Of a stretch of 64,000 nucleotides of DNA, positions 2,827 through 10,722 are shown in pieces. The stretch is taken from assembly GCA_963729605.1 (NCBI GenBank), contig CAVSNY010000002.1:32001-96000 (forward strand), read 5' to 3'. This DNA is from an uncultured Gammaproteobacteria bacterium. GTDB taxonomy: Bacteria; Pseudomonadota; Gammaproteobacteria; DRLM01. The notes beneath the pieces were generated by a model. The model did no database searches and was not told the origin of the DNA. It saw only the letters and a program-made list of their open reading frames with translations. The first letter of the stretch is position 1. Each line of letters starts with the position of its first letter. A program made the translations under genes and the position numbers.

Positions 2827-2918
2827 ACGGCTACGCCCCCTCGCGCCGTTCTCCACCGCGGGGGTTACATCGGCCATGCCGTCGCCGGCCTACTCGCGGC
2901 TACCGCGCCTCGCCGGGA

Positions 2919-5084
2919 TCAAGACACCGCCTGCAATTTGGCGTAGGCCAACACCAGCCACTTGCTGCCCGCGGCGGCGAAGTTGACCTGCACGCGCGCG
3001 CTGCTGCCCTGGCCTTCGTAATTGGTGACGACACCTTCGCCGAATGTGGCGTGCATCACGTGTTGTCCCAGCCGTAAACCGCCGGGTGGGTTTTCCGCCG
3101 CCGGCGCCGCGTAATTCGTTAAACCGGCCGGCGGTGAGATGCGCGCGTGCGACCGCACCTCGCGTATCAATTCCGCCGGAATCTCGCTCAAAAAACGCGA
3201 AGGACGCGGAAAGGTTTCACTGCCGTGCAGACGGCGGCTCTCGGCGTGGGTGAGATACAACTCGCGCTCGGCGCGGGTGATGCCGACGTAACATAAGCGT
3301 CGCTCTTCTTCGAGCCGGCCCGGTTCCTCGATCGACATCTGATGCGGAAATAAACCTTCTTCCACGCCGCAGATGAACACCAGGGGAAACTCCAGGCCTT
3401 TCGCCGAGTGCAGCGTCATCAACTGCACGCAGTCGTCCCATTGATTGGCTTGGCCTTCGCCCGCCTCCAACGCGGCGTGGGTGAGAAACGCGGAAAGCGG
3501 ATCGAGTTCGCTGTCCTCCGGCGCGGGGAATTGCCGCGCGGCGGTGACCAGCTCTTCCAGGTTTTCCACCCGCGCCTGACCGATCTCGCCCTTTTCCTTG
3601 CGGTAGTGGTCGAGCAGGCCGCTGTGATGAATGACGTGTTCAGTCTTGTCGCCCAGCTCCAATTGCGCGGTGTCGGCGGCGAGGCGTTCGATGAGATCGA
3701 CGAATATTTTTAGCGCCGAACTGGCGCGCCCCGTCAAATCGGTAGTGGCGAGCAGCATGCGGCAAGCACTGAACAGCGGGATCTGTTTTTGCCGCGCGAG
3801 ATCGCGCACCGTCGCCACCGTGCGTTCGCCGATGCCGCGGGTCGGCGTGTTCACCACCCGCTCGAACGAGGCGTCGTCGTCGCGGTTGGCGATGAGGCGG
3901 AGATAGGCGAGGGCGTCCTTGATTTCGGCGCGCTCGAAGAAACGCAGTCCGCCGTAAACGCGATAAGGCATGCCGACCGCCAGCAGCGCCTCTTCCAACA
4001 CCCGCGATTGCGCGTTGGAGCGATAAAGAATCGCCGCCTCGTCGCGGCGGTTGCCTTCCTCCGCCCAGCGCCGCAGACGTTCGACGATGAAACGCGCCTC
4101 GTCGAATTCGTTGAAGGCCGCGTAGAGCAGGATGGGCTCACCTTGTTCGCCGCGGGTCCACAGCTCCTTGCCGAGGCGGCCGCTGTTGTGACCGATCAGC
4201 GCGTTGGCCGCCTCGAGTATGGTGCGTGTCGAACGGTAATTTTCCTCGAGGCGCAACACCCGCGTGCCGGGAAAATCCTTGCTGAAACGCTGAATGTTTT
4301 CGATGCGCGCGCCGCGCCAGCCATAAATCGATTGATCGTCGTCGCCCACCGCGAACAGATAACGCGATCGCCCGCCAGCAATCGCAGCCAGGCGTATTGC
4401 AAGGTGTTGGTGTCCTGAAACTCATCGACCAGAATGTGCTGAAAGCGCTGGCGGTAGTGGGCGAGCAGCGCGGTGTTGTCGCGTAATAACTCGTGCGCGC
4501 GCAGCAGCAACTCGGCGAAATCCACCAGTCCGGCACGCCGGCAATTGTCCTCGTAAGCCTGATAAATGCGCAGCATCTGGGTCGTGAAGAGGTCGCCGCG
4601 GGCGTCGACGTGCTGCGGGCGCAGGCCCTCCTCCTTGCGGCCGTTGATGAACCACTGCGCCTGTTTGGGCGGCCACTGGGCCTCGTCGATCTCCAAGCTC
4701 TTCAGCAGGCGGCGGATCAACGCGGTATTGATCGTCGGAATCGAGGATTTGAAAGGTCTGCGGCAGATGGGCCTCGCGCCAGTGCGCGCGCAACAAACGG
4801 TGCGCGAGGCTGTGGAAGGTGCCCACCCACATGCCGCCCACCGGGATACCCAGCAGTTGTTCGGTGCGGCCGCGCATCTCGGCGGCGGCCTTGTTGGTGA
4901 AGGTCACCGCCAGCATGCCGTAGGGCGAGGCGCCCTCGACGCGGATCAGCCAGGCGATGCGGTGCACCAGCACGCGGGTCTTGCCGCTGCCGGCACCGGC
5001 GATCACCAGCACCGGCCCGGCCGGGCTGGTCACCGCGTCGCGCTGGGCATCGTTAAGGGGGTCGAGCAGATCGGAAACATCCAT
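2919..5084 (-). CDS. uvrD: DNA helicase II, split by two frameshifts (probably sequencing errors)
   Basis: Motifs AGAGSGKT, TFTNKAA, LVDEFQDTN, VGDDDQSIYGWRG, LMTLHSAKGLEFP and EEERRLCYVG are spread over three ORF pieces; +1 base near 4721, -1 base near 4362. Confidence 0.93.
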
Positions 5085-6074: not shown

Positions 6075-8453
6075 TCACGGCACATTGGTCACCTGCACGA
6101 CGGCATTAGCCATAGTTATGTACAGCGTGGTGCCGGCTATCGAAACGCCAATTGGCAAATTCAATACGCCGGGTAACGCGCCTGGTACAAACCCTCTTGC
6201 GCCGGCTGTGCCTACAACAGTCGAGACGATCCCTGTTGGGGTGATCTTGCGGATGATGTGGTTGCCGGTATCCGCGACATATACATTACCAGCAGCATCG
6301 GTCGCGATGCCTTTTGGTCCGTTAAAGCTTGCTGCGCCTCCGATACCATCAACGTGCCCTACTACATGAGACGTGCCGGCCAGTGTCGTGACAACCCCTT
6401 CCGAGGTGATCTTACGGATGATGTGGTTGCCAGTGTCTGCAACATAAATATTCCCGTTAGCGTCGGTCGCGATGCCTACAGGAGAGACAAAACTTGCTGC
6501 CGATCCTGTTCCGTCCGCACCGTCACCCACGCAGGACAAATTAGGTCGCCAAGTAAAACCAGCCAAGGTGGTAACATTCCCAGCCGGAGTAATTTTGCGG
6601 ATGGTGCAATTGTAGGTATCCGCTACATAGATGTTGCGGTTAGGGTCTGCAGCAACACCCATGGGTGAGGAAAAACGTGCACTCGGGCCACTGCCATCGG
6701 CACTGCCTGGCCATGGCGGTGAAAAACCGGCAAGCGTCGTAACGTCCCCCGATGGGCTGATCTTGCGAATTGTGCTGTTTCCAGTGTCCGCGATATACAC
6801 ATAACCTGCATTGTCGGTCGTGACCCCACGGGGGGAAGAAAACAGTGCACCTGAAGCAGGGCCGTCGCTATTGCCATTTACCCCTGCCGCACCAGCCAGA
6901 GTTGTAACCGCGCCAGCCGGTGTGATCTTGCGGATCGTATGATTCCCGGTGTCCGCCACATAGATGTTACTGAGGCTATCGGTAGCAATGCCCGCAGGGC
7001 CCGTAAAACGCGCGGTCTCGCCTACACCGTCAGTAGTGCCAGACAAATCGGGGGCACCGGCTAGCGTAGTCGTCACACCAGCCGGCGTAATCTTGCGGAT
7101 AACATGACTGCCTCCATCCGCCACATAGACATTTCCATCGATATCAACTGCAACACCATACGGGCCTCTAAAACTCGCTGTTGCACCAACACCATCAGCG
7201 TAGCCAGCGACGCCGGCGGTACCTGCTAATGTCGTTACGATACCCTCTGAGGTTATTTTGCGAATAGTGTTGTTTCCAGTGTCCGCTACAAAGGCATTGC
7301 CATCGCGATCAATTGCAATACCTGTTGGATTTAGAAACCTCGCCGCTGCCCCAGTGCCATCGACATTTCCTCCGCCTATAGCTCCAGCCAGCGTGGTGAC
7401 AACCCCGGCCTGAGTAATTTTACGGATTTCGTTGTGGTAGACATCCGTGACATAAACATTACCAGCTGCGTCGGTAGCAACAGCGGACGGGATAAAAAAA
7501 GAAGCCGGTGAATGAAGATCGATGTAAGTGGTCCCCGCCAGTGTCGTGACTACTCCCTCTGGCGTGATTTTGCGGATATTATGGTTGCCGTAATCCGCGA
7601 CGTAAATGTTTCCATGAATGTCGGTAGCAATGTCTACTGGCGAATGAAAACTAGCGGCTGCGCCGATGCCATTAGCGCTACCAGTTATACCTGCGGTCCC
7701 CGCCAATGTGGTAACTACACCGAGTGAGGTGATCTTGCGAATGGTGTGGTTGCCCTGATCTGCCACATAGATGTTTCCGCTAGTGTCAGTCGCAATCCCC
7801 GCAGGAATTTCAAAACGCGCGGCGCCGCCAATTCCATCAGCACTACCCATCGCTCCTGCGGAGCCAGCCAATGTCGTGACGACCCCCGTCGGCGTAATCT
7901 TGCGGATAACATGATTTCCTCCATCCGCCACATAAATATTTCCATTTCCATCCGTGGCAACAGCGTGCGGAAGGTCAAATCGCGCTGCTGTGCCATTACC
8001 ATTGGTATTGCCTGCGCCACCCGGATTTCCCGCTAGCAGCGATAGCACTGGAAGCGTTACACAGGTCACGACTATATTTGTGACGTTCGCATCAGCTATG
8101 GCACCGGAGCCATTTGTTATGGTGCAGTTTTGACCCGTCGGCGATATACCAATGGCTACGCCGTATGCGGAGCCGGAACTCAAAGTCGTCGCAAATTGAA
8201 AAGGTCCATCGGCGTTTAGATTGAGCTCATCGTAGCCATTGTTGCGAAACGCGACCGTGCCCTCTAACCCGATATGGTACCGCCTACGGTATAGCTGGAA
8301 TTAGAACCAGCACCGCCGCCGCACGCCGCAAGCCCGAACAACGCAATCAGGATGAGAACTAAGAAACAGCAACTCGTGCGCTGTGACGCTCGCGCACGAG
8401 AGCCGCTGGCTCGGTAGAGAGCCTCGTCCAAGCACACGGGAATTGCATGCATG
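6075..8453 (-). CDS. NHL-repeat beta-propeller lipoprotein; frameshift near 8266 separates the lipobox from the body
   Basis: About 12 repeats of GIATDxxGNIYVADxGNHxIRKITPxGVVTTLAG. The upstream ORF has LIALFGLAAC-GGG and YTVGGTISG, which continues in another frame as LEGTVAFRNNG...GSAYGV. Start codon uncertain. Confidence 0.8.
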
Positions 8454-8644
8454 TCAGAAATAATCGTATTATTTTCATTGTGATATTTTAAGGAAATATA
8501 CCGCGGATGATCGTGATCTCGCAAGGGCAACCCCTTCGCGACGGCGGTGAATTACCGGTCGTTTGCCGCGAGCTGCGGTTCGATCATCCGCTTCGCGCGG
8601 CCTTAACTCCAACGTTGAGCCTGTAGAAAACCCATTTTCGCATC

Positions 8645-9111
8645 TATACTGCTCGCTCAACTGTCAGAAGAGCTTGAGCAGAAAGATGCTGGATCGGCAG
8701 ATCAAAAATCAGTGAGCTCAAGATGAGCGCATCAGACGCTGATGGCGCTCGAAGGTGTCGGCCCCATCAGCGCCAGCGCGCTAGTCTCAGCCATCGGTGA
8801 TGCTCGCCAGTTCAAGAGTGGCCGGGATCTCGCCGCCTGGTTGGGGCTGGTTCCCAGTCAACACTCCAGTGGTGGCAAGGAGCGATTGGGGGCGATCTCA
8901 AAGCGCGGCGACACATACCTGCGCACCTTGTTGATTCATGGAGCACGCGGTGATCAGCAGCTGCGAAAAGAAAGAGGATCTTAAGAGCCAATGGTTCAAA
9001 GGAATCATGGCGAGGCGCAACAAGAATATCGCCACGGTAGCGCTTGCCAATAAAAACGCCCGTGTTATCTGGGCGGTTCTCAGTCGCGGTGAAAATTATC
9101 AGCCGGCCTGA
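8645..9111 (+). pseudogene. IS110-family (IS1111-type) transposase C-terminal remnant
   Basis: GVGPISASAL, LAAWLGLVPSQHSSGGK, ISKRGDTYLRTLLIHGAR; after a frameshift, NKNIATVALANKNARVIWAVL. The N-terminal DEDD domain is absent. Confidence 0.88.
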
Positions 9112-9397
9112 GAGGGTGGGCGCATTGTAAGAAATAGGTTTTGCAGGAGAAGGAGCGTTCCACCACGATTGCAGAGTGAATTGTATTGATGACAACCGGT
9201 CGAACCGGCACGTGTGAAACCTGACTATTGCGTGGGCCCTCTGGAAACAAGGCCGCTAGGGCGATCAGCTACACGTGAGTGGATATTCATTATGGCTCTG
9301 GGTATAAGCACCCTATACAGAAGCCGGATATACGGAAGCAGTCGTACTTGGGTTGTCAGAAAAACAGTTTGTTTGCAAAACGGGAGGAGTCCATATA
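9112..9397 (+). ncRNA. IS1111-type downstream non-coding region (seek/bridge RNA) ending in the right sub-terminal inverted repeat
   Basis: ~285 bp after the transposase stop with nested stems (CACGTGT 9209/ACACGTG 9271, CTGA/TCAG, GGCC/GGCC); ends GGGAGGAGTCCATAT at 9382-9396, typical of IS1111 right ends. Confidence 0.65.
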
Positions 9398-9513
9398 CAC
9401 AATAATCAAAGGGCATTGCGCCCTACGCGCTTAGAGTAACAAACAGAGAACAAGGCGCGGAATAGTGAGGGCATACGCCACGACTTACCTTTTATGTGTT
9501 CCCTAAGTGAGGG

Positions 9514-10623
9514 TTAGGCGATTGAAGTCAGCGCATAGCTGGTGCTTCGACCGCCTCCCGGTTCGCGCACGAGAATACCCCTACTGATGAGGTCGTTGAT
9601 GTCGCGCAAAGCGGTATCGGGCGAAGACTTTGTAAGCTGCGCCCATTTGGAAGACGTCATCTTGCCTTCAAATCCATCCAGCAGTCGATTGACAATTTTG
9701 CGCTGACGCTCATTAAGCGGATGATCTTTGAACGTCTCCCAAAACCGCGCCTTTTGAATGACGCCCGCAAGCGTCTGCTCCGCTCCTTCGATTGCGCGGT
9801 CAAGGCATTCCAAGAACCATTCCAGCCACGCGGTGATATCGAGAGCGCCCTTCTGCGTGGCTTCCAGAACGTCGTAATAGGCTTTGCGCTCAAGCCGGAT
9901 TTGCGCCGACATGCTGTAGAAGCGCTGCGGGCTTTGCTCGGACCGCGCCAACGCCATATCTGCAATGGCGCGCGCAATCCGCCCGTTTCCATCGTCAAAC
10001 GGGTGGATGGTGACAAACCATAAATGCGCTAGGGCGGCCTTGAGCACTGGATCGTGCGAGGTGTCTTCGCCGAACCATTTTAGGAAGGCCGCCACTTCTG
10101 ATTCAAGGCGAGACGCTTTTGGCGCTTCGTAATGCACACGCTCGCGCCCGATTGAGCCGGAGACGACCTGCATCGGACCTGAGCTATCGTCGCGCCACGC
10201 CCCGACGATGATTTTGGTCATGCCGCTGCGCCCGGTCGGGAACAGGGCGGCGTGCCATGCAAAGAGCCGTTCGTCCGTCAGCGGCGCTTGAAATTTCTGG
10301 GTGGCGTCAAGCATCATTTCCACGACGCCTTCGACGTTCCGGTCAGCTGGAGCAAGTGCGCCGATATCCATCCCGAGCCGTCGCGCGATGGACGACCGGA
10401 CTTGTTCCTTATCGAGTATCTCGCCTTCGATCTCGCTGGACTTGAGAACATCCTCCGTGAGGGTGGCGAGGACGGCCTCCGCGCGCAAATCGAATCCCAG
10501 TGCTTCCATTCGCCCAATCAGCCGCCCCTGCCGATGGCGAACTGGTGCAAGGCGCTGAGCCAGCGCCCCTTCGTCCCATCGGAAATTCGGCCAATCTTGC
10601 AATTCGTGGATATACGTCGGCAT
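9514..10623 (-). CDS. Fic family protein (DUF4172 N-terminus, C-terminal HTH)
   Basis: Canonical HPFDDGNGRIAR; N-terminal inhibitory SSEIEG; YIHELQDWPNFRWD start; C-terminal TALRDINDL...GGRSTSY. Confidence 0.9.
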   Translation of the reverse strand: MPTYIHELQDWPNFRWDEGALAQRLAPVRHRQGRLIGRMEALGFDLRAEAVLATLTEDVLKSSEIEGEILDKEQVRSSIARRLGMDIGALAPADRNVEGVVEMMLDATQKFQAPLTDERLFAWHAALFPTGRSGMTKIIVGAWRDDSSGPMQVVSGSIGRERVHYEAPKASRLESEVAAFLKWFGEDTSHDPVLKAALAHLWFVTIHPFDDGNGRIARAIADMALARSEQSPQRFYSMSAQIRLERKAYYDVLEATQKGALDITAWLEWFLECLDRAIEGAEQTLAGVIQKARFWETFKDHPLNERQRKIVNRLLDGFEGKMTSSKWAQLTKSSPDTALRDINDLISRGILVREPGGGRSTSYALTSIA

Positions 10624-10722
10624 TCTCCGCACCTCTTGCGGAGATTATGGCTGATATTCACCGCAAGCCGCAAGGTTAATCTCCGCAAAATATGCGGAGA
10701 TTATGGCCAATATTCGCCGCAG
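10623..10722. promoter_or_regulatory. Tandem (56-bp period) palindromic operator-like repeats upstream of fic
   Basis: TCTCCGCA-N6-TGCGGAGATTATGGC..ATATTC.CCGCA occurs at ~10624 and ~10680. Confidence 0.55.

Follow-up and report, generated by a model that had tools for sequence, protein, structure and literature searches.

Can the target code of an insertion-sequence guide RNA be read from raw sequence, and does such a guide still do anything once its transposase is gone? Both questions are raised by a short locus in the window, by which we mean the whole 64,000-nt stretch of DNA that was analysed. A reading of the letters alone (below, the sequence-only reading) had seen there the guide RNA of an IS1111 element, apparently programmed against a REP of which one half lies next door, and had suggested that this guide outlived its transposase and might act in trans. 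We conclude that the window copy is very probably a decayed, REP-inserted element of the IS1111 family in which a structurally complete two-loop seekRNA/bridge RNA is still encoded, and that the copy is by now presumably inert. The system is the seekRNA/bridge-RNA mechanism already described for IS1111/IS110 elements (PMC11187229, PMC11208160), and the locus itself, as a decayed insertion sequence, leaves the known picture of that system unchanged. The target code of an IS1111 guide RNA could, however, be read correctly from raw sequence, and relatives sitting in different targets confirm the reading without an experiment.

The truncated copy and its relatives

By homology to a sibling copy (L002), window positions 8649-9397 are the 3′ ~750 bp of an IS1111-family insertion sequence (Table 1). 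The homology begins near 8649, within the transposase gene; the 5′ part of that gene and the left element end are missing, and neither the sequence nor the alignment with L002 has a left inverted repeat, a 7-bp left extension or a left REP half at this boundary. Two overlapping open reading frames (ORFs), 8742-8984 and 8938-9111, stand upstream of the non-coding stretch, the first of them matching PF02371, the C-terminal domain of IS110/IS1111 transposases (E 1.6e-24). An IS1111 protein was taken to be a DEDD (RuvC-like) transposase with a PF02371 C-terminal domain and the motif GL-P----S/T-G; the protein remnant in the window is the PF02371 part only, with GLVPSQHSSGG present and the DEDD domain deleted. 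Relative to L002 the gene remnant has 8 substitutions in 461 aligned bases, together with three frame-breaking indels at 8686 (14 bp), 8738 (1 bp) and 8945 (2 bp). The non-coding region, which extends 286 nt from the stop codon at 9109-9111 to the IS end (237-343 nt in relatives), has 9 substitutions in 286 bases and no indels.

Table 1. Features of the truncated element, its RNA gene and the adjoining target, in window positions
Feature	Position	Strand	Remark
Transposase gene remnant	8649-9111	+	~last 150 codons, including the GLVPSQHSSGGK serine motif
Downstream non-coding region and right IS end (286 nt)	9112-9397	+	end-to-end alignment with 65 related loci
Probable seekRNA/bridge-RNA gene core	9185-9349	+	model R1, 120.7 bits over all 163 positions
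Basal stem under target loop (helix 3), 5′ half	9209-9215	+	pairs with 9271-9277
Outer closing stem of target loop (helix 4)	9220-9222	+	with 9267-9269; 2 of 3 pairs form in the window
5′ target guide, TATTGCG	9226-9232	+	complement of top-strand CGCAATA, right of the insertion point
Inner stem of target loop (helix 5)	9236-9238	+	with 9251-9253; both-side changes in 3 of 3 pairs
3′ target guide, TAGGGCG	9257-9263	+	equals top-strand TAGGG plus CG; would pair with the bottom strand
Basal stem (helix 3), 3′ half	9271-9277	+	pairs with 9209-9215
5′ donor segment, TTCATT	9286-9291	+	reverse complement of AATGAA in the L002 left extension CAATGAA
Inner stem of donor loop (helix 6)	9294-9297	+	with 9322-9325
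3′ donor segment, ATATACG	9328-9334	+	equals last IS bases ATATA plus CG
-35-like hexamer, TTGCAA	9373-9378	+	17 nt before TA; a circle would give TTGCAA-17-TACAAT
Right subterminal inverted repeat, GGGAGGAGTCCAT	9382-9394	+	perfect 13-bp inverted partner of ATGGACTCCTCCC, L002 left end
Right terminal extension, ATA (3 bp)	9395-9397	+	IS end at 9397; GTCCAT plus ATA/AGA/ACA in 65 of 80 loci
Right part of interrupted REP	9398-9426	.	CA (consensus CG), CAATAATCAAAGGGCATTGCGCC, CTAC; REP family at 13 genome places

A DNA search found one further copy in the same genome, L002 at G000:C3, with 97% identity across 723 of the 731 query bases. It has a 307-aa ORF with both PF01548 (the DEDD domain) and PF02371, a 286-nt downstream non-coding region and subterminal inverted repeats that form a perfect 13-bp pair, ATGGACTCCTCCC and GGGAGGAGTCCAT. 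Its ORF lacks 31 residues (the LVNEIRGLLGEFG... stretch) that are found in all seven aligned relatives, and among 71 uninterrupted ORFs it is the only one shorter than 335 aa, the others having 335-367 aa (median 342). The assembly contains one PF01548 match (L002) and two PF02371 matches (L002 and the window). There is no evidently intact transposase of the IS1111 kind in this assembly, which is 94.5% complete and could have left a copy unassembled. A third copy, in a genome of the same genus (G001:C44), retains only the ~last 170 nt of the gene and the non-coding region, the latter with two indels, and its left boundary is not that of the window copy. The 5′ target guide TATTGCG is common to the window and the G001 copy; L002 has TATTGCA. 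Two derived changes are unique to the window copy, the T at 9291 in the 5′ donor segment and the CA junction (9399).

A family scan over one genome per species gave 558 stretches encoding relatives, of which the best 80 were kept (46-69% protein identity); intact relatives are ~1.33-1.52 kb long. The right end reads GTCCAT followed by ATA (rarely AGA or ACA) at 237-343 nt past the stop codon in 65 of these 80 loci, and the left end has the form (C/T)(A/G)ATGnn-ATGGAC, the overall ends being CAATGRR-ATGGAC...GTCCAT-ATA. An inverted repeat of 9-16 bp is present in 66 of the 80, terminal and of the ATGGAC type in 62 and internal in four. IS1111 types are described as having subterminal inverted repeats with a 7-bp left and a 3-bp right extension (PMC11187229). 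Subterminal repeats of ~11-13 bp, insertion without target duplication and a long non-coding region downstream of the gene are likewise expected of an IS1111 element, and L002 shows all of these. With the PF02371 remnant in the window, and PF01548 plus PF02371, 13-bp repeats and a 286-nt non-coding region in L002, the assignment to IS1111 made in the sequence-only reading stands. A plasmid search with the transposase of an intact relative returned only the label ‘IS110 family transposase’ and no named IS. The subfamily is common, since the covariance model R1 (see below) matched 33 of the 149 published genomes of the class that were sampled (35 of 151 with two unpublished ones, the window's own genome being counted in both).

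TTGC in the right end and CAAT in the left end are near-invariant across the family, and the spacing that circle formation would create (TTGCAA-17 nt-TACAAT) makes a predicted circle-junction promoter, by analogy with the one described for ISEc11 (PMC11187229). The left-junction dinucleotide is almost always CA (or TA), whereas CG (or TG) stands at the right junction and in three of the four guide segments, so that in most members the second base of the donor ‘core’ is not that of the target ‘core’.

Structure and guides of the encoded RNA

Non-coding regions of the family (61 distinct sequences) were aligned for structure and folded with RNAalifold, which returned a consensus of 25 pairs in six helices. 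Standard pairs occupy 97.4% of cells, and only 27-48% once the 3′ partners have been shifted by 1-3 columns. Covariation scores 0.506, versus at most 0.10 in these shifted controls, and none of 500 shuffles attains the observed values. A covariance model, R1, was built from 59 relatives with the window left out (163 positions, 26 pairs). In one and the same search its score for the window copy (Table 1) compares with 125.6 bits for L002, 105.2 for the G001 copy and 89.7-146.7 for five training members, and judged by this model the guide gene of the window copy appears intact. In a descriptive sense, then, the guide has outlived its transposase as had been claimed: the RNA gene keeps this score, versus three indels in the gene remnant.

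All seven pairs of helix 3 change on both sides and 97.4% of its cells are paired. Helix 6 is paired in 99.6% of cells, with both-side changes in two of its four pairs, and helix 4 in 96.2%, with both-side changes in two of three pairs; in the window helix 4 has a C.C mismatch. The sequence-only reading had closed the target loop by a GGCC/GGCC stem and a CTGA/TCAG stem. The former is real and conserved, being helix 5, whose three pairs all change on both sides. The latter stands in part: its C-G and T-A pairs are part of helix 4, a conserved helix of 3 bp, but the extra G-C and A-T pairs are formed in 48.4% of cells among the 61 relatives, no better than in controls. For the donor loop, candidates for an outer closing stem were inspected by eye and did not hold in the window.

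Folded as a single sequence, 9112-9399 is no more stable than its shuffles (z = -1.02), and the fold pairs UUGC of one target heptamer with GCGA of the other (4 nt each). This guide-guide pairing was discarded, as it is formed in only 42.4% of family cells and is equalled or outscored in 499 of 500 shuffles. The sequence-only reading had named heptamers lying in paired stems, beforehand, as an observation that would speak against it; since their columns are unpaired, between helices 4 and 5, and the guide-guide pairing is not conserved, the heptamers fall outside the paired stems. An Rfam scan of 8300-9700 with E up to 10 placed no model on the guide region, its sole match being a miRNA model whose 19.6 bits fall short of the gathering score of 61.

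RNAalifold also gave a long-range helix (helix 1) between 9188-9192 (GATGA) and 9287-9291, in the 5′ donor segment. The column just ahead of the invariant CAT changes in step with its helix 1 partner (GC 44, AU 9) as well as with the left extension, and because of this double covariation the upstream strand seems to mimic the left end and could conceal the donor guide as long as the RNA is unbound.

The two target guides were compared with the flanks of 55 elements with enough flanking sequence (54 after collapsing identical sets) and with 5000 permutations. On average 5.52 of 9 positions of the 5′ target guide agree with the right flank in reverse complement (permuted mean 3.06, maximum 3.70), and the 3′ target guide agrees with the left flank plus the first two right-flank bases at 6.81 of 9 (permuted mean 3.63, maximum 4.43). 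Both observed matches lie above all 5000 permutations, a figure that treats related elements as independent and is not a true probability; the observed mean is lowered because some elements are offset by one base. Flank strings that recur exactly in the guide include TAGCC-CG, TAATC-CG, CAGGC-CG, TGACC-TG, CCTAT-TT and AAAG-CA. Since their columns stay unpaired and, in 54 relatives, change along with the flanks, TATTGCG and TAGGGCG are target guides with a CG core, as had been read.

TATTGCG stands 5′ of TAGGGCG and the two share the CG at the insertion point. The order described for IS1111 seekRNAs is the top-strand complement first, with the segments overlapping at the insertion point (PMC11187229), and for 93% of IS1111 elements a bridge RNA has been predicted in the right end (PMC11208160). 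On both strands of the 3.48-Mb genome TAGGGCG occurs 234 times and CGCAATA 509 times; by our own arithmetic the chance of finding both heptamers in the required orientations in a given 286-nt stretch is ~2e-4.

The donor side follows the element ends in the same manner. In 29 of 40 distinct sets the invariant CAT is preceded by the 2 nt expected from reverse complementing positions 6-7 of the left extension (on permutation 8.5 sets on average, at most 18), and TTCATT, a partner that the sequence-only reading had not named, behaves as a donor guide. ATATACG, which had been matched to the element end plus a CG core, does behave as one in relatives: compared with the end of the element and the adjoining flank, the 8-nt 3′ donor segment agrees at 7.02 of 8 positions (in permutations 6.28 on average and at most 6.72), and it follows the variant ends AGA, ACA, ATATAT and ATATAG. 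The family alignment yields a subfamily covariance model and a table of natural guide/target pairs, and these could aid the annotation of such elements and the choice of programmable recombinases.

Insertion into a REP

Besides the two target heptamers and ATATACG, the sequence-only reading had placed CAATA at 9400-9404 and CATTGCGCCCTAC at 9414-9426, and had noted that the junction now reads CA (9398-9399); every one of these positions is right. Genome counts bear out the REP that it proposed. The 12-mer GTAGGGCGCAAT occurs 13 times, where 200 composition-matched shuffled 12-mers have a mean of 0.285 occurrences and a maximum of 5, and the genome has 12 exact TAGGGCGCAATA sites and ~22-28 hairpins of the type GGCGCAAT-loop-ATTGCGCC.

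Within the genus, each of the three copies abuts the same REP position, GTAGGG^C(G/A)CAATA; the right flank is CG-CAATAACC... in L002 and the G001 copy and CA-CAATAATC... in the window. The left flank of L002 is GTAGGG. If CAATGAA and ATA are counted as part of the IS and the two flanks of L002 are then joined, 43 of 46 positions agree with the REP consensus, nothing being gained, lost or duplicated. Insertion into a REP, as had been proposed, is thereby upheld for the three copies; at the window locus it rests on the right flank and the sibling copies, because the left half is absent and a search with both flanks in five related genomes found no empty site, the sole match being the REP itself in G001.

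In a live element the RNA would bind the DEDD/serine transposase and bring the circle junction and the REP target together. RNA binding and catalysis are taken from published work on relatives, as described in PMC11187229 and PMC11208160; expression, processing, transposase binding and a requirement in recombination belong to what defines a seekRNA. In the target loop the partner of TATTGCG would be CGCAATA on the top strand, and that of TAGGGCG the bottom strand of TAGGG-CG, the guides overlapping at CG, the putative strand-exchange point; in the donor loop TTCATT would match the extension at the left end, and ATATACG the right end followed by CG. RNA-guided recombination of this kind would have inserted the element between GTAGGG and CGCAATA, in one arm of the REP hairpin. 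A later deletion probably took the left end, the left REP half and the ~first 55% of the transposase gene, and three indels then broke what was left of that gene.

By description the closest known case is ISPa11, a REP-targeting IS1111 element with a demonstrated seekRNA (PMC11187229). ISPa11 is reported to target REPs of Pseudomonas aeruginosa, its seekRNA co-purified with the transposase, and like the window element it has subterminal inverted repeats with 7-bp and 3-bp extensions. It differs in REP sequence and host, and the window copy is 5′-truncated with a broken transposase gene. For ISEc11, the same source describes an essential non-coding region that also works when supplied in trans and lends itself to reprogramming (PMC11187229). 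ISEc11 shares with the window family insertion without target duplication and a circle-junction promoter, which is only predicted here; its target is described as a short linear site, in contrast to the REP here, and the window system is known from sequence alone. IS621, of the IS110 group, has a bridge RNA with two loops and with left and right guides that share a core dinucleotide, and its natural targets are REPs, as here (PMC11208160). It differs, in the description given there, in that the RNA is encoded upstream of the gene, in the left end, with the guide order reversed, that the inverted repeats have only 2-3 bp and that the core is CT rather than CG (CA at the left junction) (PMC11208160).

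Fate of the orphan guide

The sequence-only reading went on to suggest that the surviving guide might act in trans. It would do so by loading a related IS1111 transposase, resident or incoming, for GTAGGGCGCAATA REPs, or else by serving as a decoy, and it would be transcribed by read-through or from an unrecognised promoter. The RNA gene does score like those of intact elements and has no indel relative to L002, and its exact target sites persist in the genome. Transposition of ISEc11 is reported to be supported by a non-coding region supplied in trans, and in the view of the same authors seekRNAs are seemingly not rigorously confined to closely related transposases (PMC11187229). A further seekRNA-like locus in the genome, at G000:C3:8914-9088, has no transposase remnant. 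Against this, the sole DEDD match in the assembly is the L002 ORF without its 31 conserved residues, and a scan of 8200-9600 for sigma-70-like promoter sites found none on the + strand, hence none upstream of the guide. Among sequencing runs, the 20 that share sequence with the locus are DNA metagenome contigs, each with under half of the sampled words, and none is an RNA run, which weighs neither way. The non-coding region has diverged from L002 by 3.1%, not below the 1.7% of the dead gene remnant, and conservation of the guide region thus does not exceed that of the dead gene. The non-coding indels of the G001 copy and the derived changes of the window copy in a donor segment and at the junction point the same way. 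With neither an intact partner transposase in the assembly, nor a + strand promoter-like site, nor excess conservation, the suggestion of activity in trans found no support, and we regard it as decidedly unlikely.

A broader form of the idea is that orphan seekRNA genes are kept, and not merely un-eroded, a resident guide steering incoming transposases to harmless REPs or titrating them. The genome has three guide-like loci versus one crippled transposase, and in the genome G075 (see below) fragments with the right end and guide exceed left ends by 15 to 7. If the idea were true, retained orphan guides would amount to control of RNA-guided transposition at the level of the host or the element; we think it decidedly unlikely.

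The third of these loci (L093, on the - strand) scores 85 bits over the full length of R1, and no transposase similarity was detected upstream of it. Its guides were also read against its flank and gave no match; its right end is degenerate.

The fragment could alternatively be a non-autonomous, MITE-like module of guide plus right end, mobilized by a transposase in trans. The precedent is MITEPpu9/ssr9 of ISPpu9, described as the small-RNA gene of a REP-targeting IS110-family element without its transposase, one copy of which in KT2440 carries a 3′-end fragment of the transposase gene (PMC12288879). According to the same source Ssr9 differs in that it is not a guide and is not needed for transposition, and its units keep both end boxes and form circles, whereas the window fragment has the right end only (PMC12288879). 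Copies that are 5′-truncated or transposase-less do make up 10 of 25 assessable seekRNA loci: 13 of the 25 have an intact transposase ORF, two a full-length broken one, five a C-terminal remnant only and five none. These were the best loci per genome, after exclusion of loci from unpublished genomes, one partial match, our genome's own two copies and two more loci with too little upstream sequence; being found through the RNA, this sample cannot show a bias.

One complete genome, G075:C1, has 12 guide-bearing copies of a related IS (L130-L141). Three of them are full-length, three have internal deletions but keep both ends, five are 5′-truncated and one is truncated at both ends; probes for the left end hit seven places, versus 15 for the right end. 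The internal-deletion derivatives (3 of 12) speak for modules of this kind. A general bias towards 5′ truncation was considered and rejected: N- and C-terminal transposase halves were found at 41 versus 48 places in 27 genomes, and at 36 versus 37 without G075. These counts omit the window's own genome, the two unpublished genomes and G124, which matched the C-terminal half only, at four places and 36% identity, its N-terminal half probably lying below the threshold. This balance stands against the module, as do the differing left boundaries of the window and G001 copies and the lack of a left inverted repeat, left extension and left REP half in the window, on account of which the copy is without the sites needed for excision. 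A search of the window's own genome for identical 5′-truncated units at several REPs with a left target half found none. We consider a mobile module very unlikely as an account of the fragment.

One-ended ‘direct transfer’ (bioRxiv 10.1101/2025.10.25.684509) was also tried as a source of truncated copies. It was rejected because the left junction is described there as being transferred first, which misfits copies that keep the right end only.

That the heptamers match the REP by accident, or through a captured REP fragment, in a region that is no guide RNA would suit the want of an Rfam family and the unremarkable single-sequence fold, but it is next to negligible given guide-flank covariation beyond every permutation, a structure backed by covariation and the low joint probability of the two heptamers.

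The window copy is therefore an ordinary case of decay, the relic of a known system; we read it so because the asymmetry in G075 is not general among the 26 other genomes.

The neighbourhood of the relic was also noted. A large gene for an NHL-repeat beta-propeller lies on the - strand at 6075-8530 (a 702-aa ORF with nine NHL repeats), and a frame break near 8183-8264 apparently splits it from an 88-aa ORF with a lipoprotein-type signal (...LFGLAACGGG). On the other side a Fic/DOC-family gene (DUF4172 plus Fic) at 9514-10632, also on the - strand, ends just before the REP, whose hairpin (9410-9424) scored as terminator-like on the - strand, downstream of this gene. Neither the Fic nor the NHL gene was found in five related genomes, and for this reason the locus looks like accessory DNA. 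The flanks of L002 (positions 1-690 and 2851-3726 of that locus) look like another accessory region, with a helix-turn-helix, transposase-like ORF of 107 aa, which we take to resemble orfA of the IS3 family, and a second ORF that is presumably RHS/YD-repeat-like.
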